A DNA stretch of 64,000 bases from Bacilli bacterium (GCA_017527675.1 JAFXPU010000002.1:6400-70399), one strand, 5' to 3'; positions 34,300 to 54,798 are shown, counted from the first letter of the stretch. The notes: generated by a model not told the origin, from the sequence alone. A program made the numbers and translations.

Positions 34300-34336
34300 T
34301 GAAAAAAAAAGATGAATTATTAATTCATCTTTTTTC
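34300..34336 (-). terminator. Intrinsic terminator downstream of the giant gene
   Basis: AGATGAATTA/TAATTCATCT hairpin flanked by a T9 run on the minus strand (A9 at 34301-34309). The T run at 34328-34336 also allows plus-strand function. Confidence 0.7.
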
Positions 34337-34339: not shown

Positions 34340-37300
34340 TTACATCATAAATTCAAGAATGCAGTATTCATATTGGTCATCAACGGCAGGTACTATCTTG
34401 ATTTGGTAATTTCTTTCAGTATCAGATGTTGCAGATCCAGCTGTACGAGCATTTGTTGAACCTGTAAATTTACCATCATAGAAGTTGAATGCACCATTAC
34501 CACGAGATATACCATAACCAGTTGTTGTACCTATTGCTTCAATATATGGATCAATTGTTGATGTTGTAGTTGAATCAAAACCAGTGTTTTCTTTAATACC
34601 TAATGTTATAGAACCACTAGTTGAATTATCATCTATTCTTACACCATATGCTGTAGCAGCATGAGCATAAATATTACCAGTTTCAATTGTATATGAACCA
34701 TTATTAACAAACGCACCATAAGCTGATGTTGTACCATTTACATGATAATCAGCATTACGTGTTACTAATGTTCCTTTATCCACATAGACACCATATGTAT
34801 TAACTGAATCAGTTGAATTAAATTCACCACCATCAACTGTAATATTACTATTAGTATTATCTGCATAAATACCAAAGGCATTATTAGCTCTATTAATATT
34901 AATTTCAATATTACTGATTGTTGATGAATTAGAAGAATTATCAAGTATAGCATACATTCTCTCAGCTTTATTCATTGTAAATGTATCTCCATTAGATGTT
35001 AAGATAGCTGTATTATATATACCAGCTTCATATCTATAATAATATGTTCCATTTTCATAAGTACGATTTAAAGTATAATCATTACCAGTAGTATTTAATG
35101 TACCACTATTGCTAATAATTCTTACATAATTATTAGTACCTGAATAAGTATCTGTAAATACAACCGTATTATTATTCAATGTTAAAATACCACTATTACT
35201 TATCATATTAAATTCAGAATAATTACCATAACTATGTGTAATATTAGCTTTCTTAATTGTTGTTGTACCTGTATTAGAAATAGTTCCTTTAATATCTTTA
35301 ATATTTGTATTACTAATACTTAATGTACCATTTGTTTTAGTATTGTTAATATTACCAGTTATTTCTGTATCAGTTATTGTTACATTAGGTGTTGAATTAA
35401 TATAAATTGAATTTGTACCTTGTAATATAGAATCACTAATTGTATTTGTTTTAGTTGAATTATCATATATTACATAATTACTTCCTTTAACAGTTGAATC
35501 ACTGATTGTATATTTTCCTGAATTTATAATTGCTTGATTACGTGAAATATTTGTAGCATAAGTTATTGTTAATACTCCATTTTCATCATTATCAACAGCA
35601 TTATAATTTTCTAATTCAATATTACTAATTGTTAAATTATCTTTATTAATAAGTGCTGTAACAGATAAACTGTTGCTTAATTTTGAATCATTATTTGTAT
35701 CTAAATTTGTAATAACTAATGTACCATTGTTGGTAATTGATTTTGTCATATTAAGATTATGACCATGTAAATCAATAGTAATTGTCTTACCTGTTGGAAT
35801 TGTTACAGCATATGACAAGTTAGCATCAGCATTAAATTCTAATGTTGCACCATCATCTGCTAAATCAATAGCCGTTTGTAAATTAGAACGTGGTTCTGAA
35901 GGATTACTACTATCTATAATGAAAGGTTGTTCTAACACAAGATAGATTTCCTTAATAAATTCTGAGGCATAGATTGGTTCAACTTCATAGCCATACATTC
36001 TCTTATTATATAAGTTTGGATTAGCTATATAACCAGATCCACCTCCAGCTCCACCATGACCGCGGTTAGATCCACCACCACCGTAGTAACCACCACCGCC
36101 ACCGGCGCCGCCGTAGCCTGAATTACAGAAATTAGATCCTTGGCCAAATGAACCATAGCCACAACTACCATTAGCTAATTTACCACCTGATGTTTGTGTA
36201 GCACCGGTACCATTATATGAGGTGTATGAATTATTATATCCATCGTAACCAGAGTTACCTTTATAACCACCAGCATTTCCACCTGGTGAAGTAGTACTAG
36301 AACCTCCAGCTCCACCACCACCAGCAGCTACGATTATAATTGCATCTTTATTACTTTCAAGTGTTGATAATAATCCTGAGGCTGTAGCAATGTGTGTTGC
36401 TCCACCACCGCCATATGACCATTGGCCGCCGCCTGAGCCACCATTACCACCGCCGTTGTAACCGCCATCATATTGAGTTCCAACACCACCAACATTAATA
36501 TATAATGTTTCACCAGCAGTTAAATCAATATAACCTTCTGAATATCCACCATAACCACCATTTGAGCCTCCACCTTGAGCACCCCATGCTTCTAATCTAT
36601 ATGTTCCTGTACAAGGAACAGTAAATGTATTTTCAGCATTTTCAGGTAAATATGAATATTCGTGATTTTGTTCACATACTCCCTCAACAGTTTCACCAAC
36701 ATAAGTAATTTTAGCATAACCATTATTCATTTTTGCATAATGACTAATTGGATCCTCAGATACACTTGTTGTTGAATATGTTCTATATTTTTGATTATCT
36801 AATGATATTTCCCCAGCATTACTTTCAAATATTTCATAACCACTTCTAACATTTGAAATAATACTATTAACAGCTTCATTAGTACCAATAATATGACCAG
36901 AATATATATTTACACTTGCATTAGAAGAATATATACCAAATAAACCACCATTAACATATGGATCAGTTATATCATTTTCATCTTCTAAATTACCGATTGT
37001 TACATATATCGTTTCACTAGCTTGTTGTATACCATAAATTGGAGCTATTATTGTTCCTTTATTTAAGTTTAATGTTGTTGAACTATATGCAGGATAAGAA
37101 TACATATATACACCAACATTACCTGATGTTATTTCTCCACCATTAATGTTTATTGTTTCATGACTTTGTGAATAATAACCCGGACTACTATAACGGTATA
37201 TACCATAAGCATCTGCACCTGGTGTTGTAATTATCGTATTACCATTTATTTCTAGGTAACCACGTTCATCATTTATACCAAATGCGTTACTTGCACCAGC

Positions 37301-40300
37301 ATTGATTGTTACATCTGTTAATGTTACTGGAGCATATTTATATATACCAGAAGCATTATCTGCAGTTATAGTAATATCACTTATATTACAGTTAGATTCT
37401 GATGTACAATATATTGCATAATAATCTCTATTAGTTGCAGTTGTGATTACTTCGGTATCACTACCACTGATAGTTAAATTATCATATTGTGATCTAATTG
37501 TATGTTCACCACCAGTAAATGTTCCACCAGTAATAGTTATTGTTCCTTTTGGATTCTTATAAGAATCACTATAAATAGCTGAACTATTTGTCGATGTAAT
37601 AGTACCATCTTCAACTTTTACTTTTGTACCATATCCAGCTAACCTAATTGATTCTGCTGTTGTTTGAATTGAACCATCTTTCATTTCTAACTCACTATTT
37701 TGACCATTTAGATAAATAGCAACATTTGTTAAATCAAATGAACCATTATTCATAATTATCTTTTGAGCTGAATCAAGATAGATTCCACGATATCCTTCAA
37801 ATGTTGGATTATTTTGTAATGTTATTGTTCCTGTTCCAGATGAACCATAAATAGAACTTCCAGCAGATTTTAGATGAGCACCATCTAATACCATTATTCC
37901 TTTGTTTTCAATAGTATTAGTAATAGTATTATCTAATAAACCTGAACCATTATCGTAAATAGTTAAAGTTCCTTCATTAACAAGTGGTTGAGTCATTGTT
38001 AATGTTTTACCATTCATATTAATAGTAATATTTTTTGAACTTGGAATTGTTGCACCAGATTGTACAAAAGCAGATGACTTAACTAAAATTGTTCCTGTAT
38101 CTTCAATTGCACCAATTGCTGCAGTAAATGAATTGTATTCATCACCATTTACTATTAAGAAGGCTTCTTTTGGAACTAGATAATTAACTATCCAAATATC
38201 AGTTGGAATTTGGTAACCATACATTTCTCCACTAATTATATTTACATCTTTTATGTAGCCTGAGCCACCGCCGCCAGATCCGGCAATGTCTGAATTAACA
38301 CCAGAACTACCACCACCGTAGTAGCCACCGCCACCACCAGATGAATAGTCTGTTCCATTTGCACCTTTACCAAATGAACCAGCAGCACCATTATTATATG
38401 TACCTTCACCAGCAGCACCACCTGCAGTTTGAGTACCACCACCAGCTAATTTAGTTAACGATGGTTTAGACTGACCACCATGGCCACCTTCATTACCACC
38501 ACCAGATCCACCTTGAGCATTGTATGATCCGTAGCTACCACCGCCACCACCACCGGCAACAATGATAATATCATCTCTATTATTTTCAAATGTAGTAAGT
38601 AAGCCAGATGATTTAGCTATATGAGTAGCTCCACCACCAGCATAATAGTTATCACCAGTAGAATTACCACCACCATTATAGCCACCTGTTGAACCAACAC
38701 CTTGACCACCTACATTAATATATAGAGTATCTCCAGCAGTTAAATTAATTTTACATGTTGAGTAACCACCATAACCACCATTTGGTGATCCACCTTGAGC
38801 ACCCCATACTTCTAATTCGTATGTTCCTGTTTCAGTAACATTAAATGTTTGTTCTCCATTTGTAAAACTAAATGTTTCAGTTTCATCTTCAGCAATGAAT
38901 GTTATCTTAGCATAACCGTTTCCTTGTTTAGCTTTCTTACTAACTGGATCCTCTGATACTTCTTCTGTTGAATTTGTAATTATATTACCAGTTACTGAAG
39001 AACTCTCTTGTACTGTAGCAATATCATATGCTTCACGAGTTGAAGAGAAATCACTATTATATCCAGCAGAACTTCCTCTTAAACGTCCTGAATAGAAATT
39101 AGCAGTACCAGCTTCTTTATAGATACCATATGTTCCACCTGATACATATGGATCATAGATATCATTCTCATTATTTAAATTACCAATAGTTGTATATACA
39201 GTGCTAGATGTTTGTTGAATACCATAATTCTTACCTGTTATAGAACCATTATTCATATTAAGAGTTGTTGAACTATAAGAAGGATAAGAATACATATATA
39301 CACCAACATTACCTGATGTTATTTCAATATCATTAATAGTAATTGTTTCATAACTTTGTGAATAATAACTTGGACTACTATAACGGTATATACCAAAAGC
39401 ATTTGAACCTGGTGTATTAATTACTGTATTACCATTTATTTCTAAGTAACCGCGTTCATCATTAATACCAAATCCATTGCTTGCGCCAGCATTGATTGTT
39501 ACATCTGTTAATGTTACTGGAGCATATTTATATATACCAGAAGCATTATCTGCAGTTATGGTAATATCACTTATAATGCAATTAGAATCTGATGAACAAT
39601 ATATTGCATAATTATCTCTATTTGTTGCGGTTGAAATAACCTTTGTATCGCTACCACTAATAGTTAAATTATCATATTGTGATCTAATTGTATGTGTTCC
39701 ACCAGTAAATGTTCCACCAGTTATATTAATTGTTCCTTTTGGATTCTTGTAAGAATCACTATAAATAGCTGAATTATTCGTTGATGTTACAGTACCATTT
39801 TCAACTGTAAGTTTTGTATTGTAACCAACTAATCTAATTGATTCACTACCAGTTGATATTTCTCCATTTTTCATCTCAAATTCACTGTTTTGAGCATTAA
39901 GATAAACACCTACACCTGTAGTATTAATTGTTCCGTTATTCATGATAACCTTTTGAGCAGAATCAACATAAATACCATTATATCCTTCAATAGTTGGATT
40001 GTTTTGTAATGTTATTGTTCCTGTTCCAGCGTTTCCACGAATAGCGTAATTAGTAGATTTAATACTTGCATTATCAATTACTAATGTACCTTTATTGATA
40101 ATAGCATCAGATGCTTTATTATCAATTTTACCTGTTAATCCAGGTTCATTCATTATCGTCAATGTTCCTTCATTAGTAATTGGTTGAGTCATTGTTAAAG
40201 TATGACCTTGTAGATCTAGAGTAATATTATTTTCACTTGGTACGGTTGCTAATTCTTGTAGACTTGCATTTTTAAATACATAAATTGTACCTGTATCCTC

Positions 40301-43300
40301 TACATCACCAATAGCAGCTTCAAGTGAATTATATTCAGTTCCGTTATATATCAAGAATGCTTCCTTATTAACTAAATAATTTACAGTCATTGAATTTCCA
40401 TAGTCAGAATAAGTATACATTACTTTATTGCTTAAGCGACTGTTGTTATTATAACCAGAACCTCCGCCACCAGCTGTAGCATAGTTGTTACCAGCAGCAC
40501 CACCACCGTAGTAACCACCACCACCGGCACCACCCATAATTTTATTTGAAATTGTTGATTCAGGACTACCACCTTTACCAAATGATCCATTTCCTAAATT
40601 ATTATTATAGGCAAAGTATCCAGGTCTATTTACTGTTGCACCAGTACCATAGTACTGTGGATAAGATGGAGATGGAACACCATCTGCAGCTCTGTAACCA
40701 CCGGCATCTCCACCAGAACCATATTCTGAAGAGCTCCAGTAACCAGAACCACCACCACCACCGGCAACAATTAAAATTGCTTCTTTATTATTTTCTAATG
40801 TTGATAACTCACCTGATGTTGTAGCAACATGTGTTGCTCCACCACCAGATCCAGAATAGAATCTTGTTGATGGATAAAGCATTACAGCATCTCCACCACC
40901 ATTATAACCACCTGGAATAGTAGTGTTATTATCATAACCTATTGTACCAGCACCACCAACATTAACATATAGTGTTTCACCAATACTTAATTCAATTTCA
41001 CCTGTAGCATATGAACCATATCCACCACGAATTGATTCACTATATGAACCACCTTGAGCACCCCATACTTCTATTTTGTATAAGCCAGCACATGGAGCAC
41101 TAAATGGTGCTTCTCCAGGTTCAGTAAATGAAGTAACAGAATTTTGTTCGCATACACCCTCAATAGTTTCGCCTAAATATGTTATCTTAGCATAACCATT
41201 ATTCATTTTTGCATATTCACTAATCGCTTCATCAGAAACATTATTAGTGACAATTGTTAAATTCTCTGATGTATTTTCATGTTCACTAGTAATTTCTTTT
41301 GCAGCACGTAATGCATTAAAATCTTGATTATATCCGCCTGATAAACCTCTTAAACGTCCTGAGTAGAAATTTGATGTACCACCATTTTTATATAATCCAA
41401 ATAATCCACCTGATACATATGGATCATAAATATCATTTTCAGCATTTGGATTACCAATTGTAACATATACAGTACTTGAAGCAGCATGGATACCATATGT
41501 ATCACCAACTACTGAACCATTATTCATTACTAATGTTGTTGTACTATAACTTTGTCCTGAGAACATATATATACCAACATTACCAGATTTAATATCAACA
41601 TCATTTATAGTTATAGTATTATAACTTTGACCATAATAACCTGGATTACTATAACGGTATATACCATAAGCACTACCTCCAGGTGTATTAATTATAGTAT
41701 CACCATTAATATTTAAATTACCACGTTCATCATTAATACCAAATGAATTATTAGCATTTGCATTTATTTCAACATCTGTTAATGTTACACTACTATATGC
41801 ATATACACCTGAGGCATTTTCAGCTGTCATTGTTGAATTTGTAATATTACAATCAGATTCAGAATAACAATATAAAACATACTTGTCATTACCTGAACCA
41901 GTAACAATCATATCCGTACCACTAACTGTTAAATTATCATAGTAAACTCTAACAGCACTTGATACACCAGTTATAACACTATCAGTTATCTTTATAGTTC
42001 CTCTTGGACTCTTATAAGAATCACTAAAGTAACCATAAGTACCTGTTGAAGTAATATTACTTCCATCAATTGATACCTTAGTATTATATCCTAATGTTCT
42101 AATTGCCTCATTTACTGCTGTAATAGAACTATCATTAACTTCTAATTGACAATTAGTATTTTCTAGTCTTATACCAACATTAGTTGCATTAATATCTGCT
42201 TCATTAACCACAAATTTTGAATTATCTTTGTTACATGTTAAAGCATTATAACTATTTATAGTTGTACCATCTAATGTTGCTGTTGTATTTGCATTAGTAA
42301 ATTGAATAGATGCACGTTGTCCATTATCAATAATATTCGTATCACCAATTGTTACATTTTTAGCAACTTCAATACCTTGAATATTACCACCACTAATAAC
42401 ATAATCTTCATGATTACTTAATAAAGCATATGTATCACTTTTTAAGTAAGAATCATTATCCATTGTAAATGTACCAACGTTATTAACAGCATAACCATTT
42501 TTAGCTTCAATACTAGAATTAGTAATATTTAATGTTCCATTATTATTAATAGTATTACTATTTGTAACTTGTTTTAAAATAATATTTTCAATAGTTAACT
42601 CGCCATCATTAGTAATTGGACTTGCACTTGTAATTGAACCTGGATTTTCAGATATATCATAGATTCTTAAAGTACCATTATTAGTTATTGGACTACCTGT
42701 TGTAATATTGTAACTTTGCATATTTATTTCAATATCATAATCTTCTCTTATTTCAATAGCATATGATGCCTCAAAATCTCTTACAATATTAACTGGTTTA
42801 CCCATATAGTTAGCTGTATCTATTGCATTTTGAAGATTGAAGAAATATTGAACATTTTCTCCACCATTTTCAATGATTGCAACAGCATTAGCTGGGTTAC
42901 CATTTAAGAAACTTCTTTGATATATTGTTCCAATTACTGGTTCTGTATAGAATGTATATCCACGAGGTAATGAATTAACTCCACCATTTAGAGTAAATTG
43001 ACCTTGTAAATATCCATCATAGAAGTTAAATGAGCCATTTTGTTCTAATGCTACTGTTGAACCAATAATAGCAATTGCTTCTGTTTCAATAGTTCCGTCA
43101 TTAACACCCATTGTTAAAGTTTTATTATTAACAAGACCAGTACCATCTGGATTATTAATAGTACCATTTAATAAAATCATAATACCATTATTAATAAATG
43201 CACCAGTTAAAGTATGACCACCTAAGTTGAAGGTTACATTCTTATTATTAGTTACATTTTCAGTTGTATCTTTAATAAGTTCAATTGTATCATTTTCATT

Positions 43301-46300
43301 TGCAGCTGCTAAAGCTTCAGCAATAGATACATAGTATTCATCGCCTATTTTAGCAACAGCATCATCATTAACTGTCCAAACAGCTGTAACAGTAGCATCT
43401 GATAAATTCATTGTTACAGTATTACCATCTAAGATTCCAGCCTCAGATGCTTCCCAATGATTGAATGTACAAGCATGTTTTTCAAGTTCACTTGGATTAT
43501 CAATTAATAGATATGGTTCACCATGTTTTAAGTAAACTAATCTAACTTCTTTTGATCCTTTATAGTATCCAGATTTTGGATCTATTGTTAAATATAAATC
43601 TGTATTACCAGCTATAATATCATCTATTGATAATGATTGAAGATATTTTCTTTCACTTTGTTCTTCATGTTTTGTAACAACACGTGCAAGATTAGCAATA
43701 GATGTTATTTCACCTTCCATAGCTTGGCTACCTTCAATATAACCATCATACATATTAAATGTATTATTGTTTTGTACAGCTATATTTTCACTTATTATTC
43801 TTATACTAACACTTGATACAGCTTCATCATTTTGACCCATGTTAAATGTACCATTATTAACAACAGCATAATCATCAAAGTTCATGATTGTACCATTATA
43901 AATATCAAGTGTACCATTGTTAGTTACTTTGGCTGTAATACTATATCCACCTAAATTAACTACTGCTTTACGACCAGAAGCAACTTCAATTTCGGTTTCA
44001 TCAGAAATTGGTTTTAATAAAGTAATCACACCACCTAATTCTTCATCATAAGCATTAATAGCAAGTTGTAATGATGAATAATAAGTTTCACGATATACAG
44101 CAACAGTTTGTCCACCGTAATCATTTTTAATATTTTCTAGCCATGCATATTCATAACTAGTTTCTTCATCGACATATGTTGTAACTTCTTGATCTTTTTC
44201 AACTAATGTAGTAGTTCCTACTTTAGCAAAACGAGAAGCCCAGATAACACCATCGTAGAAATTGAATGATCCATTTTCTTTATCTACACCAATACCTTTT
44301 GTAGTACCAATTGAGTGGATAACTGGATTTTCTTGAGATACATTATCTACTGAGTTGTCATAATGACCCATGATAAATGTACCTGGATTAATGTAAGCAC
44401 CATAAGTTGTTGGAGCATCAGATACATTAATTGAACCAGTTAATAATGTAGTTTGGGCATTAGCAGTAACCATATAAACACCATAGTTTTCAGCACTACC
44501 AACGGCATTTATTTCTGAATTATCAATTAAAGTGTTACCGCTGCCACTAGTTTCAATACCATAGTATTTACCAGTTTTTTGTTCAGCATGTCCAACAGTT
44601 AAACTACTTTCATTTTCTAATGTTAAAGAACCTGTATTAGAAATACCTTTAACGTAATATTTATAAGTATTAGTCTCATCAACTTTAATATTTGTATTAT
44701 TGATATCCATTGTTCCACTATTATAAATAGCTACATAAGTATCACTATAATTATAGTTTTGTGGACTACCTAAATTAATATTTGAATTATTAATAGTCAT
44801 AGTTGCTGAGTTACTAATTGAACCACCATTTGTATTAGTAACATTTACTCTTTCGAATGTTGCAATAGAATTACTTGAATTTGATATTGATCCATTAGAA
44901 CCAATTATGATATTAGTATCAGTTACATCTAAAGTAGTTCTTATACTTTCAATGTTTCCATCAAGTACTGTATTAATTCCATTACCAACAACAGTTACAG
45001 TTGCTTGGGAATTATCATTAGAATAAATACTATAGTTTTCACCACTATAATTACCACCAGTAATAGTAACATTTTTAGTATTATTAATTGCAATTTTACT
45101 AGCTACAATATTTGAAGAAGTTATATCTAATGAATTTGTATTATAAATTGCATTAATAGCATTCATTCTTGAATTATTAATTACTAAATTACTTGTATTG
45201 TTAATTATATAATTTGATGAACTAACATTAGTTAATTTAATGTTATTAATATTTAGAGTTCCATTATTATTAATTAAATTGATTGCAGATGAAGTTTTAA
45301 TATTTGCTTCATTTTCTGAATCATTAATTAAAGTAATGTTACCATTATTCGTTATTGTTTTATTTGTTGAAATTGTATAACCATGTAAGTCTAAGTTGAA
45401 ATGTTTAGTATTATTATTTGTAACAGAATAGTATAAAGGAACATTAGCTACTAAGACAACTGTTTGATCTGTATCAGCATCATTTATAGCTTCTTGTAAG
45501 TTAGTATATTCAACTCCTGTTTCCCTGTTATATGCTATAACACTTTCCATAATTAAATATTTAACTTTATAAGTTTCACCATCAATAATTTCTGTATCTG
45601 GGAATATTTGAGCATGAGGAGGAATATTAGAAATAATTCCATATTCAGCTTCTGTTGTTCCTTTTAAGATACCATCATAGAAATTAGTTGTTCCACCATC
45701 AATATATAAACCATAGAAAGTACCTTGAATCATTGGTTGAGTTATATCAATGCTATTATCTTCCACAACACCTAATATTGTTGTTCCAGTTGTATAAACA
45801 CCATAAGCACCACCAATAATAGAACCACCTGTAATAACACAGTTATCAGATGATGTATTTAAACCATTGTTATCTTCACCAGTAATAATACCGCCTGTAA
45901 TTAAGATTGTATTACCTGAATTAGTATTTGCAACACCATTTGTTTTACCAGTGATTGTACCACCATTGATAACTACATGGCCTAAAGCATAATAACTACC
46001 CTTAGTAACAGATACAGCAGTGCCAACTGTAGATGTAATAGTACCATCATTGATAGTTGTTGTACCATCTTGAATAGCAACAGCATTACTATTTGCTACA
46101 TTTGATGTAATAGTACCGCCATTAATAGTTGTTGTACCCCAGCTATCTAATGAATATGTATCAGTTCCTTCAATAGTACCACCATTAATTGTTAGAGTAC
46201 CACTACTATATACACCACCATAGTTATTAATTGTTAAATTATCAATTGTTAAAGTACCACCATTGTTAATAGCATAATCTTGATCAGCATTATATGTACC

Positions 46301-49300
46301 ACCTTCAATAGTAAGAGTACCAGTGTTATAAACAGCAGCAGTATTATATCCATCCGCATTACCATTTGAACGGATATTAGTTATACCACCATTACCAACA
46401 CTATCTTTAATTGTGTTAGTACCTTTAGTTTGAAGTGGTTGAGTCATAATAACTGAATGACCATTTAAATCGAATGTTATGATTTTACCATATGGAAGTT
46501 CTTGTTCATAATCAACATAAGCATCAGCAATAACTTCAATTGTACCTTCAGAATCAATTGCTGCTGTTGCGTTAGTTAAGGTATTATATTCAACTCCATT
46601 AACTCTTAACCAGTTACCAACTGGAACTAAATATTGAGTTTTATAATAATCACGATCAATATAAGTATAATCATCTTTGATCATATAAGCATCAGGTATT
46701 AAACCAATTAAACCATTATGTGGTTCTTCCATACCTTGTAAAACGCCATCAAAGAATTTTGTATAAGCAGTTGTATTTAAACCATATCTTTTACCAGTTA
46801 ATGATGGAGATTCAATTGATACATTTTTCTCATCATCACCTATTTGCGTTTCAGTTGATGTATAAACTCCATCAACTTCACCAATTATTTCACCAGCATG
46901 GATAGATAATTTAGCACCAATTGCATGAATACCATAAGAATCAGTACCTTTAACTTTACCACCAGTTATGTTTATGTCGTGGTAATAGCATCCACCCCAT
47001 CCAGAGTAATAACAGATATGTTCAATACCCATTGTACCAGTTACTTCACCGCCTGATACATTAGTTACCTGAGCTGTAACAACAGCAACACTATTATTAG
47101 ATTTAACTTCACCATTGGAAACTGTAATACTACCATAGTAAGAATATAAAGCATTATGAGCATTAGCTTCTACACTACCACCATCAACATGAATAGTAGC
47201 ACCAGCTCCCCCAATACCATAATTTTCGCCAAATATTGTTCCACCATCAACATAAACAGTTCCAACATTATAGTTGTATGGTGATGAAATACCCATATCT
47301 GAACCAGTAATAGTACCACCATGAACAGTTGTGTTACCTCTGTTGTTAATACCAGCAAATGATTCTTCAATATTGATATCATTTATAACTAAATTAGCAT
47401 CGTTAGTAATTGCATATTTATTAACATTAAAATAAGCATTGTTAATTGTAAGTAGACCAGATTCATTTATGATAACTTCATCTACTACTTCTGATAAATA
47501 ATTACCAGCTTCAATAGTTAATTTATTTCTATTTGTAATACCAGCAATTCTTGTTGGTTTTATTGTACCTAAATTACTGTCATCAACAATTGTTACATCA
47601 GAATCATTGTATATTGTTTGAGTACTTGTAATTGTATGACCATTTAAATCAAATGTAATATGTTTATAGCCAGTTTCTTCTGTACCATTATCAACAAAAT
47701 GTTGAGTAAATACTAAATCAGCATCTTTAATAACTGTAATGGTACCTGTTTCACCTTCACCAATAGCTTTAGATGCAGCATCGATAGAATTATATTCTGT
47801 ATCACCAACTTTTAACCAATTTTCATAATGAACAATAAAATCAGTTTGATATAAGTTTCCATCAATTTCTTCTTCACCTTCACCACCAACGCAGGCAAGT
47901 GGTAAACCAGTAATACGACCTTCATAACCATCTACTTGACCTTTTAAAATACCATCATAGAAATTAGTAACAGGTCCATCAATATATAAACCATAAGCAC
48001 CACCAATAATTACTGGATAATCTTCTGGCTCATCTTCATCAGTGTCTTCAAAACTGCCTATTGTTAAAGATCCTTTATTATAAACGCCATAGTTTTCACC
48101 ATAGATATCTGTTTCACTACCTGTAATTGTACCAGTACCCATTACCGTAATGGCATTAGCTTCACTACTATGTACTTTACCACCACTGATATTTAAGTTA
48201 GTTGTAACCAATGCATCATTTGCTGATAACACTTCACCACCAGAAATAGTAGCAGATGAAACCGAAACTGCACGACTTTCTGATGTAACCTTACCACCAG
48301 TAACTGTTAAAGAATTATTTGAATAAACACCATAATTTTTACCAGTTATCTCACCAGCAGAAATATTAACGTTGCAACTACTGATACCAATATTTTCACC
48401 TTTAACAAGTCCACCATAAACATTAACAGTTTGACCACCGCAAGATATAGCAGTATCGTTATCAGAATAAACATCACCAGCATAAACATTAACAGTTGCA
48501 CCACTAATAGCAATTCCATTAACTGATTTAATTTCGCCATTATTATTAACATTAACAGTACCTGATGAAATAGCATTACCTTGGCTAGTTATTAAACCAC
48601 CATTAGCATTAACAGTACCATAGCCATCATAGTAATTAGATATACCTGTTGTTTGAGATGAAATAGTACCATCATTTACAGTAATAGTTCCTCTATTGTA
48701 TATCATTGTTGTATCATAGTTTGTACTTATTTCACCAGCATTCATTGTAATAGTTCCTGTATTAGTAATAGCTGGAATATAATTTCTATCATCTATTTTA
48801 TAAACATGTAATTTAGTATTTTCATCTAAGACAATTGAACCAGTATTATATAAACCATAAATAGTACCATCATCAACAACTAAATTATCTGATTTATTAT
48901 ATAAACCATAATTACCAGTTGAATCAATTAATGTATCCTCAGTAAAGGTAATTACGGCATCAGTATTATTATAAATACCATATCCACCTTTAGAAGTAAT
49001 TTCTGTATCATCTAAGTTTAAAGTATTATTATTTTGAATTACGTTACTATCAGTTGTTGCTACAAGATCAACATCATCAATATCCATAACACCATTATTA
49101 ATGATTGTAAATGATGTTTTTAATTTACCATCGTCTTCAGCAGAACTTAGTATCTTGAAATATCCATTATTAGTAACTGTATTACCAATTGATACTGTAT
49201 GACCCATAGTGTCAAAGAATAATCTTGAGTTTTCAGGAATTTCTATTTCATAAGGTGCTTCAAAATTACGATGAGCATAAACTATAAAGTTTGAATCTAA

Positions 49301-50749
49301 ATCTGGTGTTAAGGCTTCTTTGTTTAATTTAGCTGAAATAAAAGCGTCTTGTAAATTGTAATAATAAACATCTTTTGTATATGGAGTTGACGTACGAGCA
49401 ACAGCACGTGATGGATTACGTACTAAATATATTCTTTGACAATTTCTTTCATCATTATGGTCAGCAAATACATAATAGTTTTCTGCTTTATCAGTATAAC
49501 CACCAACTAAACCTGATAAACCTTCAATATAACCATCATAGAAATAGAATTCAGAACCGTCTTTATTAGTTAAACCAACAGCATTACCAATTAAAGCAAT
49601 ACTATTTTCAACATAAACAAATCCATCATTTAAACCTAAATCCAAATGACCATAGTTTATAAAGGCTTCTTTGTCTTCTGTTCTAGCAACTACACGTCCA
49701 TTTGTTAAAGCAATATTACCAGCAGCTGAATTGGTAATCGTTCCATTTACTGTATGACCACCTAAGTTAAATACAAAATCGTCAGTAGTATTATTTACTG
49801 GATATTCTGTTGTATCTTTCAATAAATAAACTGTATTATCAGCAAAGTCAGCATGCTTAGCAGCATCAAAAGCATCTTGAATAGTTGGATAATATGTTGT
49901 CATAATACGAGCAACATAATCTCCTTCTTCCCAAGTAGCTTCAATTGTTACGTCTTCATCACCCATAGTAAATACATCATTAGTAAAATCATATGTTCCA
50001 TTTTCTTCTGGTGATGTAACTGTCCAACCCTTAAAGTTATATAATTCACGTGTTGGCATTGCAACTGTATATGTTTCATTTTTCTCAAGATAAATTCTTG
50101 TATCAGCTAAACGATTAGCATATACACCACCTTTAGGTTTAATTGTTAAAACATGTTGATTTTTTCTAGGTTCAGGCGTACATGTATTTTGTTTTTGAAC
50201 ATAATTAATATTAAAGAATAATTCTAGATGCACATCTTCTGTTGGATAATCTTCTAAAGGTAAATGATCTTTAAATTTAACTATAGCTTTAATCCATCTT
50301 CTTGTACCAGCATCAAGTGGATCACAAGGTAAGATTGGATCACCATTATCATAAGTAACATCAAAATCTAAATAAGCTTTTTGTTCATCAGTTAATTCAA
50401 ACTTATCAATAGATTCTACCATGGCATCAATAGAACCATCGTTTACTGTATATACCGTAAATTCATAAAAGTCGCCAGGTTGTTTTAAGTCAGCTTCAAA
50501 CTCAATACGGGTTTTAGCTCGATCGACAATTTTAGCATCATTTTCTGATTCAACTGAATCAATAGATTTTTCTACATCATCAAAATAGATAATCCAACTG
50601 CTCTTTTTAATTGTTGAATTACCATTAATTGATAATGTGCTTTTTAAAAATGCACTTCCTAAAGAAATAGACACTATTAAAAACAAGACTACGCTTGCTA
50701 TTATAGTGAATTTATTTAATTTTAATTTTAAAGCTAACTTCTTAATCAT
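34340..50749 (-). CDS. Giant (5,469 aa) secreted repeat protein: SipW-cognate-type signal peptide + TasA-like N-domain + Flg_new repeats + beta-helix-like repeats + three glycine-rich domains
   Basis: Uninterrupted 16,410-nt ORF. N-terminal KLNKFTIIASVVLFLIVSISLGSAFLKSTLSINGN then LKQPGDFYEFTVYTVNDGSIDAMV...LELFFNINYVQKQ (TasA/camelysin-like). Listeria/Bacteroides repeats (PTRELYNFKGWTV...ATW; CTFNHWEAS...AVWT). Hundreds of NxG/T-rich repeats of the parallel beta-helix type. Three Gly-rich modules (GGGATH...AGGGGGSGY). No LPXTG and no recognised C-terminal anchor. Confidence 0.9.
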   Translation of the reverse strand: MIKKLALKLKLNKFTIIASVVLFLIVSISLGSAFLKSTLSINGNSTIKKSSWIIYFDDVEKSIDSVESENDAKIVDRAKTRIEFEADLKQPGDFYEFTVYTVNDGSIDAMVESIDKFELTDEQKAYLDFDVTYDNGDPILPCDPLDAGTRRWIKAIVKFKDHLPLEDYPTEDVHLELFFNINYVQKQNTCTPEPRKNQHVLTIKPKGGVYANRLADTRIYLEKNETYTVAMPTRELYNFKGWTVTSPEENGTYDFTNDVFTMGDEDVTIEATWEEGDYVARIMTTYYPTIQDAFDAAKHADFADNTVYLLKDTTEYPVNNTTDDFVFNLGGHTVNGTITNSAAGNIALTNGRVVARTEDKEAFINYGHLDLGLNDGFVYVENSIALIGNAVGLTNKDGSEFYFYDGYIEGLSGLVGGYTDKAENYYVFADHNDERNCQRIYLVRNPSRAVARTSTPYTKDVYYYNLQDAFISAKLNKEALTPDLDSNFIVYAHRNFEAPYEIEIPENSRLFFDTMGHTVSIGNTVTNNGYFKILSSAEDDGKLKTSFTIINNGVMDIDDVDLVATTDSNVIQNNNTLNLDDTEITSKGGYGIYNNTDAVITFTEDTLIDSTGNYGLYNKSDNLVVDDGTIYGLYNTGSIVLDENTKLHVYKIDDRNYIPAITNTGTITMNAGEISTNYDTTMIYNRGTITVNDGTISSQTTGISNYYDGYGTVNANGGLITSQGNAISSGTVNVNNNGEIKSVNGIAISGATVNVYAGDVYSDNDTAISCGGQTVNVYGGLVKGENIGISSCNVNISAGEITGKNYGVYSNNSLTVTGGKVTSESRAVSVSSATISGGEVLSANDALVTTNLNISGGKVHSSEANAITVMGTGTITGSETDIYGENYGVYNKGSLTIGSFEDTDEDEPEDYPVIIGGAYGLYIDGPVTNFYDGILKGQVDGYEGRITGLPLACVGGEGEEEIDGNLYQTDFIVHYENWLKVGDTEYNSIDAASKAIGEGETGTITVIKDADLVFTQHFVDNGTEETGYKHITFDLNGHTITSTQTIYNDSDVTIVDDSNLGTIKPTRIAGITNRNKLTIEAGNYLSEVVDEVIINESGLLTINNAYFNVNKYAITNDANLVINDINIEESFAGINNRGNTTVHGGTITGSDMGISSPYNYNVGTVYVDGGTIFGENYGIGGAGATIHVDGGSVEANAHNALYSYYGSITVSNGEVKSNNSVAVVTAQVTNVSGGEVTGTMGIEHICYYSGWGGCYYHDINITGGKVKGTDSYGIHAIGAKLSIHAGEIIGEVDGVYTSTETQIGDDEKNVSIESPSLTGKRYGLNTTAYTKFFDGVLQGMEEPHNGLIGLIPDAYMIKDDYTYIDRDYYKTQYLVPVGNWLRVNGVEYNTLTNATAAIDSEGTIEVIADAYVDYEQELPYGKIITFDLNGHSVIMTQPLQTKGTNTIKDSVGNGGITNIRSNGNADGYNTAAVYNTGTLTIEGGTYNADQDYAINNGGTLTIDNLTINNYGGVYSSGTLTINGGTIEGTDTYSLDSWGTTTINGGTITSNVANSNAVAIQDGTTTINDGTITSTVGTAVSVTKGSYYALGHVVINGGTITGKTNGVANTNSGNTILITGGIITGEDNNGLNTSSDNCVITGGSIIGGAYGVYTTGTTILGVVEDNSIDITQPMIQGTFYGLYIDGGTTNFYDGILKGTTEAEYGIISNIPPHAQIFPDTEIIDGETYKVKYLIMESVIAYNRETGVEYTNLQEAINDADTDQTVVLVANVPLYYSVTNNNTKHFNLDLHGYTISTNKTITNNGNITLINDSENEANIKTSSAINLINNNGTLNINNIKLTNVSSSNYIINNTSNLVINNSRMNAINAIYNTNSLDITSSNIVASKIAINNTKNVTITGGNYSGENYSIYSNDNSQATVTVVGNGINTVLDGNIESIRTTLDVTDTNIIIGSNGSISNSSNSIATFERVNVTNTNGGSISNSATMTINNSNINLGSPQNYNYSDTYVAIYNSGTMDINNTNIKVDETNTYKYYVKGISNTGSLTLENESSLTVGHAEQKTGKYYGIETSGSGNTLIDNSEINAVGSAENYGVYMVTANAQTTLLTGSINVSDAPTTYGAYINPGTFIMGHYDNSVDNVSQENPVIHSIGTTKGIGVDKENGSFNFYDGVIWASRFAKVGTTTLVEKDQEVTTYVDEETSYEYAWLENIKNDYGGQTVAVYRETYYSSLQLAINAYDEELGGVITLLKPISDETEIEVASGRKAVVNLGGYSITAKVTNNGTLDIYNGTIMNFDDYAVVNNGTFNMGQNDEAVSSVSIRIISENIAVQNNNTFNMYDGYIEGSQAMEGEITSIANLARVVTKHEEQSERKYLQSLSIDDIIAGNTDLYLTIDPKSGYYKGSKEVRLVYLKHGEPYLLIDNPSELEKHACTFNHWEASEAGILDGNTVTMNLSDATVTAVWTVNDDAVAKIGDEYYVSIAEALAAANENDTIELIKDTTENVTNNKNVTFNLGGHTLTGAFINNGIMILLNGTINNPDGTGLVNNKTLTMGVNDGTIETEAIAIIGSTVALEQNGSFNFYDGYLQGQFTLNGGVNSLPRGYTFYTEPVIGTIYQRSFLNGNPANAVAIIENGGENVQYFFNLQNAIDTANYMGKPVNIVRDFEASYAIEIREDYDIEINMQSYNITTGSPITNNGTLRIYDISENPGSITSASPITNDGELTIENIILKQVTNSNTINNNGTLNITNSSIEAKNGYAVNNVGTFTMDNDSYLKSDTYALLSNHEDYVISGGNIQGIEVAKNVTIGDTNIIDNGQRASIQFTNANTTATLDGTTINSYNALTCNKDNSKFVVNEADINATNVGIRLENTNCQLEVNDSSITAVNEAIRTLGYNTKVSIDGSNITSTGTYGYFSDSYKSPRGTIKITDSVITGVSSAVRVYYDNLTVSGTDMIVTGSGNDKYVLYCYSESDCNITNSTMTAENASGVYAYSSVTLTDVEINANANNSFGINDERGNLNINGDTIINTPGGSAYGIYRYSNPGYYGQSYNTITINDVDIKSGNVGIYMFSGQSYSTTTLVMNNGSVVGDTYGIHAASSTVYVTIGNPNAENDIYDPYVSGGLFGLYKNGGTSNFYSGRLRGLSGGYNQDFNALRAAKEITSEHENTSENLTIVTNNVSDEAISEYAKMNNGYAKITYLGETIEGVCEQNSVTSFTEPGEAPFSAPCAGLYKIEVWGAQGGSYSESIRGGYGSYATGEIELSIGETLYVNVGGAGTIGYDNNTTIPGGYNGGGDAVMLYPSTRFYSGSGGGATHVATTSGELSTLENNKEAILIVAGGGGGSGYWSSSEYGSGGDAGGYRAADGVPSPSYPQYYGTGATVNRPGYFAYNNNLGNGSFGKGGSPESTISNKIMGGAGGGGYYGGGAAGNNYATAGGGGSGYNNNSRLSNKVMYTYSDYGNSMTVNYLVNKEAFLIYNGTEYNSLEAAIGDVEDTGTIYVFKNASLQELATVPSENNITLDLQGHTLTMTQPITNEGTLTIMNEPGLTGKIDNKASDAIINKGTLVIDNASIKSTNYAIRGNAGTGTITLQNNPTIEGYNGIYVDSAQKVIMNNGTINTTGVGVYLNAQNSEFEMKNGEISTGSESIRLVGYNTKLTVENGTVTSTNNSAIYSDSYKNPKGTINITGGTFTGGTHTIRSQYDNLTISGSDTKVISTATNRDNYAIYCSSDSNCIISDITITADNASGIYKYAPVTLTDVTINAGASNGFGINDERGYLEINGNTVINTPGSNAFGIYRYSSPSYYSQSYETITINDIEITSGNVGVYMYSYPSYSSTTLNMNNGSITGKNYGIQQTSSTVYTTIGNLNNENDIYDPYVSGGTYGIYKEAGTANFYSGRLRGSSAGYNSDFSSTREAYDIATVQESSSVTGNIITNSTEEVSEDPVSKKAKQGNGYAKITFIAEDETETFSFTNGEQTFNVTETGTYELEVWGAQGGSPNGGYGGYSTCKINLTAGDTLYINVGGQGVGSTGGYNGGGNSTGDNYYAGGGATHIAKSSGLLTTFENNRDDIIIVAGGGGGGSYGSYNAQGGSGGGNEGGHGGQSKPSLTKLAGGGTQTAGGAAGEGTYNNGAAGSFGKGANGTDYSSGGGGGYYGGGSSGVNSDIAGSGGGGSGYIKDVNIISGEMYGYQIPTDIWIVNYLVPKEAFLIVNGDEYNSFTAAIGAIEDTGTILVKSSAFVQSGATIPSSKNITINMNGKTLTMTQPLVNEGTLTIYDNGSGLLDNTITNTIENKGIMVLDGAHLKSAGSSIYGSSGTGTITLQNNPTFEGYRGIYLDSAQKIIMNNGSFDLTNVAIYLNGQNSELEMKDGSIQTTAESIRLAGYGTKVKVEDGTITSTNSSAIYSDSYKNPKGTITITGGTFTGGEHTIRSQYDNLTISGSDTEVITTATNRDYYAIYCTSESNCNISDITITADNASGIYKYAPVTLTDVTINAGASNAFGINDERGYLEINGNTIITTPGADAYGIYRYSSPGYYSQSHETININGGEITSGNVGVYMYSYPAYSSTTLNLNKGTIIAPIYGIQQASETIYVTIGNLEDENDITDPYVNGGLFGIYSSNASVNIYSGHIIGTNEAVNSIISNVRSGYEIFESNAGEISLDNQKYRTYSTTSVSEDPISHYAKMNNGYAKITYVGETVEGVCEQNHEYSYLPENAENTFTVPCTGTYRLEAWGAQGGGSNGGYGGYSEGYIDLTAGETLYINVGGVGTQYDGGYNGGGNGGSGGGQWSYGGGGATHIATASGLLSTLESNKDAIIIVAAGGGGAGGSSTTSPGGNAGGYKGNSGYDGYNNSYTSYNGTGATQTSGGKLANGSCGYGSFGQGSNFCNSGYGGAGGGGGYYGGGGSNRGHGGAGGGSGYIANPNLYNKRMYGYEVEPIYASEFIKEIYLVLEQPFIIDSSNPSEPRSNLQTAIDLADDGATLEFNADANLSYAVTIPTGKTITIDLHGHNLNMTKSITNNGTLVITNLDTNNDSKLSNSLSVTALINKDNLTISNIELENYNAVDNDENGVLTITYATNISRNQAIINSGKYTISDSTVKGSNYVIYDNSTKTNTISDSILQGTNSIYINSTPNVTITDTEITGNINNTKTNGTLSISNTNIKDIKGTISNTGTTTIKKANITHSYGNYSEFNMISNSGILTLNNNTVVFTDTYSGTNNYVRIISNSGTLNTTGNDYTLNRTYENGTYYYRYEAGIYNTAILTSNGDTFTMNKAERMYAILDNSSNSSTISNIEININRANNAFGIYADNTNSNITVDGGEFNSTDSVNTYGVYVDKGTLVTRNADYHVNGTTSAYGAFVNNGSYTIETGNIYAHAATAYGVRIDDNSTSGSITLGIKENTGFDSTTTSTIDPYIEAIGTTTGYGISRGNGAFNFYDGKFTGSTNARTAGSATSDTERNYQIKIVPAVDDQYEYCILEFMM
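35900..42300 (-). repeat. Three tandem coding repeats of about 2.2 kb each (about 750 aa) inside the giant gene
   Basis: The nucleotide landmark CCTTGAGCACCCCATRCTTCTA recurs at about 36595, 38815 and 41075. Protein units 2 and 3 are about 85% identical (TITLQNNPT(I/F)EGY...YDPYV(S/N)GG...EVWGAQGG...GGGSGY); unit 1 is about 65%. Boundaries are approximate. Confidence 0.7.
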
Positions 50750-50812
50750 ATAAACCCATACCTTTACTATCTTATTATCTTATTATACATAATAATTTTA
50801 TCACATTTTAGC

Positions 50813-50842
50813 CTAAAAAAAAAGCAAACTTGATAAGTTTAC
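50813..50842 (-). terminator. Intrinsic terminator between the 249-aa gene and the giant gene
   Basis: Minus-strand hairpin GTAAACTT-ATC-AAGTTTGC followed by T8-9 (A run at 50815-50823). Overlaps the upstream gene's stop codon. A TATAAT element lies about 40 nt upstream of the giant gene ATG. Confidence 0.5.
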
Positions 50843-51588
50843 TTGATTTTTTCTATTATTAATTTATTATCCTTAACAGCAAATTCAACAATTACATCAT
50901 TATCAACTTTTCCTATCTTGGAAATATTGTCTTTAGTAATCATTTTTTTAACTTCTTTAGCCTTAGCTTTTCCCTTTAAATAATCAGATATAGCCTTAGT
51001 ATCAACGTTATTTTGGTTATCTTTAAATTTATTATTTAAAAGACTAATATCATTATAATAATTCAAGATTTTATAAGGATTATCAACTACATATTTACTA
51101 AATGTTACTTCAAATTTTTTGTTATTTATTTTTTTAATTTTCTTTAATTCAAATTTAACAATTTTAGTTTTCGCAATGTCTGATTTTATATTAGATTTAT
51201 TATAAGTATAACTAGCATTACTAAGATCAAACACAATTCCCTTATCAGCCATATAAGGAGTAATTCCAATACTTGCAACTGCATCAATATCATATTCTTT
51301 ATCAAAATATTTGTTAACAACTTCAATTATTTCATTAGCGCTAAAAACGTTTTTATCGGTATTATTATAAAGATATTCAATAGCAAAACAAATATATTTA
51401 CCGCTTTCATCATCATGTTCTGTTATTTCCTCTAAATAATCAGCTATTTCATTACTAGTTTCTTCAACTTTTATTTTCTCTAAATTAGTCATTTTCTTTG
51501 ATTTTTTAAAGAAAATGAAGCAAGCTAAAAGAATAATTAAAAATGCTATAGCTATTATAAAATACTTATTAGTTAATACTTTTTTCAT
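50839..51588 (-). CDS. Membrane-anchored hypothetical protein (paralog A)
   Basis: 249 aa, N-terminal TM helix. Paralog of 51596..52351 (shared GITPYMxD, KKxKVT(F/Y)xKYV(V/I)(D/E)NPY(K/E)(I/V)LNYY). Confidence 0.5.
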   Translation of the reverse strand: MKKVLTNKYFIIAIAFLIILLACFIFFKKSKKMTNLEKIKVEETSNEIADYLEEITEHDDESGKYICFAIEYLYNNTDKNVFSANEIIEVVNKYFDKEYDIDAVASIGITPYMADKGIVFDLSNASYTYNKSNIKSDIAKTKIVKFELKKIKKINNKKFEVTFSKYVVDNPYKILNYYNDISLLNNKFKDNQNNVDTKAISDYLKGKAKAKEVKKMITKDNISKIGKVDNDVIVEFAVKDNKLIIEKIK

Positions 51589-51595: not shown

Positions 51596-52351
51596 CTACT
51601 TTATCTTATCTATTAATAATTCATCATCTTTGACAACAAAAATAATACTAATTTTTTTATCATATTTAGCAAAATTCTTAATATCATCCTCATTGATTAC
51701 TTTTTTAAATGATGATAACGAACCAGAACCCATTAAATAACTTTTTATTGGGCTTAAATCGATTAAATCTTGTTCTTTTTTTTGCGTATTTTGTTCCATA
51801 TAATAATTTAAAACTTCATATGGATTTTCAATAACATATTTTTCATATGTAACCTTATATTTCTTACGGTTTACCTTACTCATTTTTTTTACTTTATAGT
51901 ATGCTATTTCTTTTTTAGAAATAGTACTAGCATCAACAGTATTAAAAACTATTGAATAAGTATCATTTCCAGGTTCATAAGATACATTATTATCTAACAT
52001 ATATGGTGTAATACCAACATTTTTAATATCATCTTTAGTAATTTCTTTATTAAAATTATCCTTAATAAATGTTGCTATTTCTTCACCCGTTAACCTATTT
52101 TTATTTAATTCTATTTTATTATATATCAAAGCATAAACAATATATTTTTCGTCATCTTTTGCATCTACATCTAAGTAATTTAAATAGTTAATTATTTCAC
52201 TATTTTTCTCTCTAATATTCTTCTTTTCTAATGATGATAAAGATCTAAAATGAAATAAATATATCAAAATAGTTACTAAGAATATAAAGCCTAATCCACA
52301 TAATACTATTAGGCCTAATCTACGGTTATCAACGTTTATTTTATTTTTCAT
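51596..52351 (-). CDS. Membrane-anchored hypothetical protein (paralog B)
   Basis: 251 aa, N-terminal TM helix; 7 nt gap to paralog A. Confidence 0.5.
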   Translation of the reverse strand: MKNKINVDNRRLGLIVLCGLGFIFLVTILIYLFHFRSLSSLEKKNIREKNSEIINYLNYLDVDAKDDEKYIVYALIYNKIELNKNRLTGEEIATFIKDNFNKEITKDDIKNVGITPYMLDNNVSYEPGNDTYSIVFNTVDASTISKKEIAYYKVKKMSKVNRKKYKVTYEKYVIENPYEVLNYYMEQNTQKKEQDLIDLSPIKSYLMGSGSLSSFKKVINEDDIKNFAKYDKKISIIFVVKDDELLIDKIK

Positions 52352-54717: not shown

Positions 54718-54798
54718 TACACACACCTCTATCTTAGTACATTATAACATATTAATTCAATTATTGTTATATTTTTTTGAAAAAAAACAAAAAAAGAG

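Follow-up and report, generated by a model that had tools for sequence, protein, structure and literature searches.

TasA-superfamily fibres are currently understood as biofilm scaffolds of small subunits. In Bacillus subtilis, tapA-sipW-tasA combines a fibre subunit and an accessory subunit with a dedicated signal peptidase of the endoplasmic reticulum (ER) type, and the fibres are built by donation of an N-terminal strand after cleavage (PMC9674648, PMC10151520). The haloarchaeal Tat-fimbriae (TafA-G) have a peptidase, TafD, and a DUF5305 protein, TafG, adjoining their subunits; TafD is experimentally required, deletion of tafD blocks processing, and in the published model strand donation links tip, adapter, shaft and anchor subunits (PMC11821415, PMC12337348). 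AbpX loci, known from archaea and Bacillota, hold a signal peptidase I with ten transmembrane (TM) segments, a DUF5305 accessory protein, minor subunits and tip proteins, and the published bacterial ones carry SLH or LPXTG anchors; the AbpX monomer is a sandwich plus an unstructured strand, and its donor strand carries W2, L6, L8, A10 and I12 (bioRxiv 10.64898/2026.01.04.697558). Here we describe a gene cluster with features of these systems in a 64,000-nucleotide stretch of DNA from a bacterium labelled Bacilli (GCA_017527675.1, JAFXPU010000002.1:6400-70399; hereafter the window, to which all coordinates refer unless a locus is named). At its centre is a giant gene for a protein of 5,469 amino acids (aa). 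On balance, we take this giant to be a surface adhesin of ~579 kDa from uncultured gut Bacilli of very low G+C content (GC), with its front end probably joined to an AbpX-like fibre by donor-strand complementation.

The cluster shares with AbpX loci an acidic subunit of ~160 aa with a predicted jelly-roll fold, a cleavage site of the form G/T-Y-A/x (slash, cleavage), a putative amphipathic N-terminal donor strand, a TIGR02228 signal peptidase I of ~10 TM segments, a probable DUF5305 protein, AbpX-like minor subunits and 'tip proteins' with other domains. It differs in that identity to AbpX is only 17–25% and in that the domain is here fused to a 5,270-aa passenger of beta-helices and glycine-rich domains (GRDs). 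The cluster also lacks SLH and LPXTG anchors, sortase, cyclic di-GMP and two-component genes, and it has a second, dead peptidase paired with a subunit made of a TM segment, a linker and the domain. Its 185-aa DUF5305 homolog is reduced, lacking the extracellular sandwich described in the literature, and its hosts, uncultured gut Bacilli, have many copies in each genome. From tapA-sipW-tasA it is set apart by the lack of any significant match of the giant to TasA or to Pfam Peptidase_M73, by the passenger, which TasA does not have, and by the peptidase: SipW is short (~190 aa) and has no long polytopic membrane domain at its N-terminus, whereas the peptidase here has ~9 TM segments before the catalytic domain. 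The Tat-fimbriae differ in using Tat export, in having subunits unrelated in sequence and in having no giant passenger.

Other adhesins invite comparison too. Giant sortase-anchored adhesins of Gram-positive bacteria are LPXTG proteins such as those of the Ebh/SasG type. The giant described here is of the same size class, has a similarly repetitive, rod-like build and presumably a role in adhesion, but it lacks an LPXTG motif, wall-binding repeats and a TM segment plus charged tail at the C-terminus, and its attachment would be N-terminal. Chaperone-usher tip adhesins (FimH, PapG) have the reverse layout, beginning with the binding domain and finishing with the pilin domain; a chaperone and an usher assemble them in the periplasm, and they measure ~300 aa against 5,469 aa. 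The GRDs themselves have their strongest likeness in the TG domain of the receptors ALK and LTK (PF12810; PDB 7nx1, 7nx4, 7lrz), with a strong Pfam match in three places and the best structural matches. In the receptors the TG domain is the ligand-binding surface; here it is bacterial, extracellular and carried on beta-helix rods, and its glycine-rich half is modelled at low confidence (predicted local distance difference test, pLDDT, <50). Several things are new in this locus: the passenger itself, for its size and for its make-up of beta-helix rods bearing three bacterial ALK/LTK-type domains; how widely an uncultured lineage employs the N-terminal domain (N-domain) as an attachment module; the lack of SLH and LPXTG anchors; and a conserved pairing of a pseudo-peptidase with an anchor-type subunit.

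An intact giant gene

The first-pass annotation of the window had read the giant gene as one uninterrupted minus-strand open reading frame (ORF) of 16,410 nucleotides (nt). That reading holds, and the gene is real and intact. By its own base composition a stop is expected every ~12 codons, and the frame is open for 16.4 kb; the probability of finding no stop in 5,469 codons of that composition is ~1e-215. The longest ORF in the other five frames of the region is at most 94 aa. A 124-kb ENA contig from a ruminant gut metagenome, assembled independently, carries the cluster at 99.99% identity (2 mismatches in 21 kb), and the 5,469-aa product is called there too. The giant gene and the cluster are also found in an independent Logan assembly. 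The mature protein has a computed mass of ~579 kDa and an isoelectric point (pI) of 4.35.

One could still suppose that the gene is non-functional, as a chimera assembled across repeats or as a pseudogene in decay. All the source data are short-read metagenomes, the gene is modular with modules that are 50–75% identical, one Logan contig stops inside module M8, and a homologous giant (locus L086) has an in-frame TGA. We consider such an artefact or pseudogene hardly credible given the equal length and near-identity in independent assemblies, the 16.4-kb open frame, and at least six homologs (3,577–6,572 aa) with the same architecture. The longest DNA repeat inside the gene is 300 nt at 90% identity, which together with the independent assemblies makes repeat collapse or mis-joining unlikely; repeat collapse was rejected on this ground.

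The L086 gene belongs to a related rumen organism, where a single in-frame TGA (L086 18300-18620) cuts the homologous giant into 4,056 and 3,194 aa. The TGA sits in a GRD at a place where relatives have Gly (GGA), and it might reflect a nonsense mutation, an error in sequencing or a phase-variable state.

The GC of the giant gene is 28–34%, compared with 22–26% in the flanking genes. Horizontal transfer, which the higher GC might suggest, was considered and rejected, because the Gly/Thr/Asn-rich codon content explains the difference (Gly makes up 12.2% of the protein) and the neighbouring genes are chromosomal.

The N-terminal domain

The annotation placed a signal peptide and a TasA-like domain at the front of the protein. 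The signal peptide stands, with aa 7–41 as the only hydrophobic segment of the giant. Across the N-domain family, the motif G-[YS]-A/x-L-x-x-x-L-x-I-x-G (slash, proposed cleavage) directly follows the hydrophobic helix, and its G-[YS]-A part is kept in ~90 of 142 members. An AlphaFold2 (AF2) model of the monomer contains a seven-stranded sandwich with pLDDT >90 and leaves the conserved strand before it (aa 35–53) unstructured, with pLDDT ~50. We infer that aa 34–53 act as a donor strand; hydrophobic or small residues occupy mature positions 2, 6, 8 and 10, a register that agrees with W2/L6/L8/A10 of AbpX.

The lead to the identity of this domain came from its neighbours, because the only papers that discuss DUF5305 are those about archaeal TasA-like fibres. 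In single-target hhalign tests, the profile of the N-domain family aligned with AbpX at E 1.9e-4 over 149 columns and, in a second run, at E 8.3e-4 over 155 columns. The alignment runs colinearly through the entire domain, starting at the cleavage site and reaching the C-terminus. The corresponding tests against TasA (with a provisional sequence) gave E 0.094 and 0.021 over 19–56 columns, covering only a 'PGD...N.GS' motif, and were not significant. Pfam (E ≤ 10) and NCBIfam (E ≤ 0.1) searches with the N-domain and the small paralogs described below returned no family. A Foldseek search of the PDB with the N-domain model gave weak and mixed matches with adaptin appendage domains on top; donor-strand filament subunits recur in these weak structural searches, the TasA fibre among them at a probability of 0.72. 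Taken together, sequence and gene context give modest support for placing the N-domain in an AbpX-like branch of the TasA superfamily. 'TasA-like' is apt in that broad sense, with modest statistics, and does not extend to the Pfam TasA family; of the two, AbpX is the nearer relative. Identification as TasA or camelysin proper was rejected on the missing PF12389 match and the short, non-significant TasA alignment.

The gene cluster

On the minus strand, the cluster runs from a 193-aa subunit through a 395-aa peptidase, a 185-aa DUF5305-like protein and proteins of 251 and 249 aa (P251 and P249) to the giant, which is followed by a terminator, a 232-aa subunit, a 401-aa peptidase paralog and a 130-aa protein like the C-terminal part of DUF5305 (Table 1). 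This gene set (peptidase, DUF5305, small paralogs) agrees with that of the reported AbpX loci. The 193-aa subunit matches AbpX directly by BLASTP (E 0.002, 25% identity over 181 aa), and the two mature proteins are alike in length (160 versus 161 aa), pI (4.14 versus 4.05) and content of Asp plus Glu (15.0% versus 14.9%). The 395-aa peptidase scores 86.1 bits against TIGR02228 (cut-off 51.85), has ~9 TM segments before the catalytic domain as judged by hydropathy, and retains the catalytic Ser, His and Asp in alignment.

Among 185,579 species genomes scanned, 323 relatives came to light, and we compared the neighbourhoods of the best 78 within 10 kb. All 78 loci come from uncultured gut or rumen metagenome-assembled genomes; these carry the labels Bacilli, Erysipelotrichaceae, Tenericutes or Bacillales and have several copies each. 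A peptidase gene lies within 10 kb in 18 of the 78. In most of these 18 the small subunit is kept just before the peptidase, and the order small subunit, peptidase, DUF5305, larger N-domain protein is likewise found in most of them. The DUF5305-like gene adjoins the peptidase in 20 loci. In L008 and L011 a homologous giant comes immediately after the peptidase/DUF5305 pair, and in L086 one comes after the peptidase. Homologs of P251 and P249 accompany giants in L017, L062, L065 and L086; the two proteins themselves have no PDB match and no significant Pfam or NCBIfam match.

The second peptidase gene of the cluster appears to encode a pseudo-enzyme. Its TIGR02228 score falls under the cut-off of 51.85, the catalytic Ser is replaced by Ala and the His by Asp, and the GDxN motif is gone. 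Catalytic residues are also missing from the orthologs in L062 (2333-3499) and L065 (11272-12465), as seen by alignment, and in L086 (2485-3663), as seen in the sequence. Because this loss is conserved across species, the gene looks like a maintained pseudo-enzyme and not a decaying gene. Always just upstream of the dead peptidase is a distinct subunit subtype (L065 10595-11290, L086 1820-2476, L062 1757-2329) with a cytoplasmic N-terminal tail, a TM segment, an 'IYASLA.N.GIK' motif and usually a linker of 35–45 aa rich in Pro, Glu and Thr before the sandwich. The 232-aa subunit in the window has this layout, with an acidic cytoplasmic tail, one TM segment, the motif 'AYASLAFNLGIKVI', a Pro/Glu-rich linker of ~38 aa and a beta-sandwich. 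Conceivably, the 232-aa subunit and the dead peptidase form a membrane-anchored fibre base, in which the pseudo-peptidase would hold the uncleaved subunit. The 130-aa protein has no TM segment, its start overlaps the stop of the pseudo-peptidase gene, and it groups with DUF5305-like proteins from 19 loci.

The passenger

The layout of the rest of the giant was derived from self-comparison and motif searches. There are ~11 beta-helix modules in total; a 'DLxGHT'-type N-cap opens most of them, and an 'NFYDGxLxG' C-cap with a hairpin closes each. In M7–M9 (aa ~2640–4925) every helix is followed by a GRD, and these three helix-plus-GRD modules are mutually 50–75% identical. The annotation had described long tracts of parallel beta-helix. 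One module (aa 3445–3905) was modelled: in an AF2 model of aa 3445–4180, model residues 20–460 form an all-beta solenoid of short strands with pLDDT >90, for which Foldseek returned the HK620 tailspike (probability 0.95), CBA120 TSP2 and PL6 lyases. The model and these matches confirm a predicted right-handed parallel beta-helix for this module, and the description is upheld there; the other modules would share the fold, as they carry the same N-cap and C-cap motifs and are 27–43% identical to it.

The three modules said to end in a GRD were likewise borne out. PF12810 (ALK_LTK_GRD) matches three stretches of the giant at E 1.8e-84 and 284 bits, far over the cut-off of 24.5. The model of the second GRD has the LTK/ALK TG/GRD structures 7nx1, 7nx4 and 7lrz as its top Foldseek matches (probability 1.0). 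The top 18 PDB matches are all LTK or ALK TG/GRD structures (probability 0.99–1.0, 19–26% identity), with the glycine-rich stretch of the model at pLDDT <50. Two Flg_new repeats had also been proposed. The first is probable, with 24.5 bits under a Pfam cut-off of 27, and the second is weak (Flg_new_2 E 0.02); the region around the second (aa 2387–2623) is 36% identical to that around the first (aa 201–450). A PDB sequence search with the beta-helix/GRD region returned nothing. A word-indexed homolog search with a beta-helix-plus-GRD module gave 7 matches and was swamped by low-complexity candidates; the homologous giants described below were recovered through the N-domain.

The annotation had seen no conventional anchor at the C-terminus, and we found none. 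The whole giant contains no LPXTG-type motif and no second hydrophobic segment or C-terminal TM segment. The last 540 aa have no Pfam match at E ≤ 1, NCBIfam gave no anchor-domain match for the giant, and motif, Pfam and NCBIfam searches together gave no sorting signal or wall-binding domain (LPXTG, SLH, choline-binding, LysM, WxL). The C-terminus (...NFYDGKFTG...QYEYCILEFMM) is an ordinary module cap with its hairpin. Internal modules close with a like hairpin ('SYEYAWLEN'), and the L086 homolog has the same ending. A sorting role for '...YEYCILEFMM' was rejected because the same hairpin motif caps internal modules.

Table 1. Features of the giant gene and its cluster, listed in the direction of the minus strand. 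Residue numbers (aa) refer to the giant protein.
Feature	Coordinates	Strand	Basis
Small AbpX-like subunit, 193 aa, candidate major fibre subunit	54145..54726	-	Paralog of giant N-domain
Archaeal/ER-type signal peptidase I, 395 aa	52948..54135	-	TIGR02228
DUF5305-like peptidase accessory protein, 185 aa, 2 TM + C-terminal domain	52383..52940	-	PF17231
P251: N-terminal TM + ~210-aa domain	51596..52351	-	Between peptidase block and giant
P249: N-terminal TM + ~210-aa domain	50839..51588	-	Paralog of P251 (35% identity)
Weak AT-rich hairpin + T9 run before giant	50813..50842	-	-8.2 kcal/mol, z -2.3
Giant gene, 5,469 aa	34340..50749	-	ATG start, no interruption
Signal peptide, aa 1-33, ends G-S-A before F	50651..50749	-	Sole hydrophobic segment; family G-[YS]-A motif
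Candidate donor strand, aa 34-53 (FLKSTLSINGNSTIKK...)	50591..50650	-	Conserved; disordered in model; putative role
AbpX-like beta-sandwich (jelly-roll-type), aa 54-195, seven strands, pI 4.4	50165..50590	-	AF2 model
Probable Flg_new (Listeria-Bacteroides) repeat 1, aa ~205-275	49925..50137	-	PF09479 E 2.9e-5, TIGR02543 E 0.02
Beta-helix modules M1-M5, aa ~280-2385	43595..49912	-	Internal similarity, cap motifs; fold predicted from modelled module
Weaker Flg_new-like repeat 2, aa ~2390-2462	43364..43582	-	Flg_new_2 E 0.02
Beta-helix modules M6-M7, aa ~2465-3150	41300..43357	-	Self-comparison, motifs
ALK/LTK-type TNF-like + glycine-rich domain 1, aa ~3183-3444	40418..41203	-	PF12810; WGAQGG at aa 3229
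Beta-helix module M8 (modelled), aa 3445-3905	39035..40417	-	AF2, Foldseek
Glycine-rich domain 2, aa ~3938-4180	38210..38938	-	PF12810; Foldseek
Beta-helix module M9, aa 4181-4635	36845..38209	-	70-75% identical to M8
Glycine-rich domain 3, aa ~4678-4925	35975..36718	-	PF12810; WGAQGG at aa 4722
Last beta-helix module M10, aa 4930-5469	34343..35962	-	Similar to aa 1725-2205
Intrinsic terminator after giant	34300..34336	-	15-bp stem + U run, -14.2 kcal/mol, z -5.4
Anchor-type AbpX-like subunit, 232 aa	33549..34247	-	Paralog of giant N-domain; putative anchor role
Polytopic signal-peptidase paralog, 401 aa, pseudo-peptidase	32335..33540	-	TIGR02228 43.4 bits
Soluble protein, 130 aa, like C-terminal part of DUF5305	31953..32345	-	PF17231 E 0.016

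Attachment to the cell

It had been suggested, without recourse to the nearby peptidases, DUF5305 and paralogs that provide the decisive context, that the giant, if it stays on the surface, is held through its TasA-like N-terminal domain. The relation to AbpX and the cluster of paralogs, peptidase and DUF5305-like protein favour attachment by that end, with the reservations that the domain is not the TasA of Pfam and that donor-strand assembly, like the cleavage, the roles of the subunits and the ligands, is something we infer. In the arrangement that we favour, the giant would be exported by Sec, and its signal peptide would be cut after G-S-A33 by the polytopic signal peptidase I of the cluster (52948..54135) and its DUF5305-like partner. 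The freed amphipathic strand (aa 34 to ~47) would then enter the open sandwich of a neighbouring AbpX-like subunit, and the giant's own sandwich (aa 54–195) would receive a strand in return, a case of donor-strand complementation. The 193-aa paralog would be the main fibre subunit, and the 232-aa paralog, with its TM segment and proline-rich stalk and paired with the dead peptidase, the membrane-proximal base. The 5,270-aa passenger would stand out from the fibre as rigid beta-helix rods, with the three ALK/LTK-type domains and one or two Flg_new repeats as potential binding heads for host, feed-particle or microbial ligands.

Several results weigh against this arrangement. The homology to AbpX is modest, with hhalign probabilities of 24–48% and identities of 17–25%. 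Pfam Peptidase_M73 (PF12389) has no match at E ≤ 10 in the giant's N-domain or in either small paralog, and neither phmmer with the N-domain nor hmmsearch with its profile brought up a meaningful match among PDB sequences. The PF17231 match of the 185-aa protein (E 1.8e-6, 28.0 bits) lies just under the cut-off of 29. In one relative, L010, only a DUF5305-like gene precedes the giant, and a peptidase is missing from the surrounding 10 kb. Upstream of the giants of L008 and L011 no small subunit was seen, which implies that a mixed fibre would not be obligatory.

Two other arrangements were weighed. The giant could be a membrane-tethered monomer, that is, a type-II membrane adhesin with an uncleaved signal anchor, or one held by the peptidase or pseudo-peptidase; its sandwich would then serve only as a spacer close to the membrane and would not polymerise. 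Its single hydrophobic segment is N-terminal, and AF2 builds aa 2–38 as one continuous helix, unbroken through the proposed cleavage site. No peptidase lies within 10 kb in 60 of the 78 loci, and the dead paralog could hold such segments rather than cut them. Tethering of this kind nevertheless seems rather unlikely to us: the G-[YS]-A motif obeys the -3/-1 rule and is, with the strand that follows it, the most conserved part of the family, which is unexpected for a simple anchor; an intact dedicated peptidase stands immediately upstream here and in L008, L011 and L086; and the relatives AbpX, TasA and TafA are all processed.

The other possibility is that the giant, once cleaved, is not attached to the cell, and that it polymerises with itself head to tail by means of its N-domain or is shed, giving an extracellular mesh that would aggregate cells or bind particles. 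TasA and AbpX are matrix scaffolds and not anchored pili, the giant is the only N-domain gene seen by the peptidase in L008 and L011, and the cluster lacks any wall anchor, while the published bacterial AbpX loci have SLH or LPXTG anchors. Set against this, the cluster encodes both a TM-plus-linker subunit suited as a base and a small subunit of AbpX size, and the crowding of 5,270-aa passengers in a homopolymer would seem unfavourable. We consider release improbable, and retain attachment of the giant to an AbpX-like fibre as the preferred reading.

The N-domain family

Attachment by the N-terminus had been called unusual for a giant adhesin. Within this lineage that description does not apply. 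When 1.84 billion representatives were searched by profile, the N-domain family proved to have 5,892 representatives at 50% identity, and the domain is at the N-terminus in 150 of the 150 matches listed, in host proteins of 175–6,572 aa. At least six more giants (3,577–6,572 aa) combine the N-domain with two to four helix-plus-GRD modules at 31–40% identity. Passengers in other members include BspA-type leucine-rich repeats (LRRs), DUF285, DUF6273, GRD and Flg_new, and this variety suggests that the N-domain behaves as a general module for display or attachment. The source names of family members are all 'hypothetical' or absent.

One member from Logan, P0027 (480 aa), matches the N-domain profile in three stretches, which are possibly tandem copies. 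It also has a sub-threshold match to Peptidase_M73 (E 5.6e-4, 20.2 bits against a cut-off of 22.5), and it is the sole member of the family near that threshold. P0027 is a possible bridge in sequence between the N-domain family and TasA proper.

A broader picture can be drawn only tentatively, and we would sooner doubt than assert it as a whole. The AbpX-like N-domain might be a universal plug-in attachment module in one uncultured lineage of very low-GC gut Bacilli, used alongside or instead of C-terminal anchoring by sortase. Dozens of adhesin-type proteins per genome might use it, with passengers ranging from BspA-LRR, DUF285 and DUF6273 to beta-helix/GRD giants as long as 6,572 aa; a 10-TM signal peptidase would cut each of these proteins, and donor-strand complementation would fasten it to a fibre. 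In the same picture the base would be the subunit with a TM segment and proline linker, kept uncleaved in the membrane by the conserved dead peptidase paralog, and the ALK/LTK-type GRDs would be the ligand-binding heads of the largest adhesins.

The locus suggests that the chemistry of strand donation may also mount very large modular adhesins by their N-terminus, and apparently on a large scale, given the 5,892 representatives and the many kinds of passenger in never-cultured Bacilli of the gut and rumen. If this is true, it would explain how these organisms could display giant surface proteins without sortase signals, allow the ALK/LTK glycine-rich fold to be studied as a binding module in bacteria, and give a conserved pseudo-signal-peptidase a role as the holder of an uncleaved anchor subunit.

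Transcription of the giant gene

The annotation had placed intrinsic terminators on both sides of the giant gene and a TATAAT element upstream of its start, and had read the gene as its own transcription unit. The downstream terminator is convincing. The upstream hairpin is weak, as its folding energy and z-score indicate (Table 1), and was not reported by a terminator scan. The TATAAT (50787..50782) lies 33 nt before the ATG and has no good -35 element, and scans for consensus promoters found sites in this AT-rich DNA to be no commoner than in shuffled sequence. A separate transcription unit is thus plausible, on the basis of one good terminator, a weak hairpin and an unverifiable -10 box, and there may be read-through into the giant gene from the upstream block of five genes.

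Other features of the window

Outside the cluster, a 986-aa surface-type protein (17138..20098, minus strand) has a VWA domain and bacterial TSP3 (calcium-binding) repeats and no AbpX-like N-domain. At 23060..28256 (minus strand), a 427-aa protein with an ApeA-like N-terminal domain and HEPN stands beside a SWIM zinc-finger protein and an SNF2-family helicase with DUF3670; this region may be a defence island. A lone VirD4/TraG-type coupling protein of type IV secretion (13043..14380, plus strand) is encoded among housekeeping genes that include an AddAB-like helicase-nuclease (1654..7083), and it may be the remnant of a conjugative element. Divergent genes for tRNA-Trp(CCA) and tRNA-Ala(TGC) are found at 28865..29151, ~5 kb past the 3' end of the cluster (31953).

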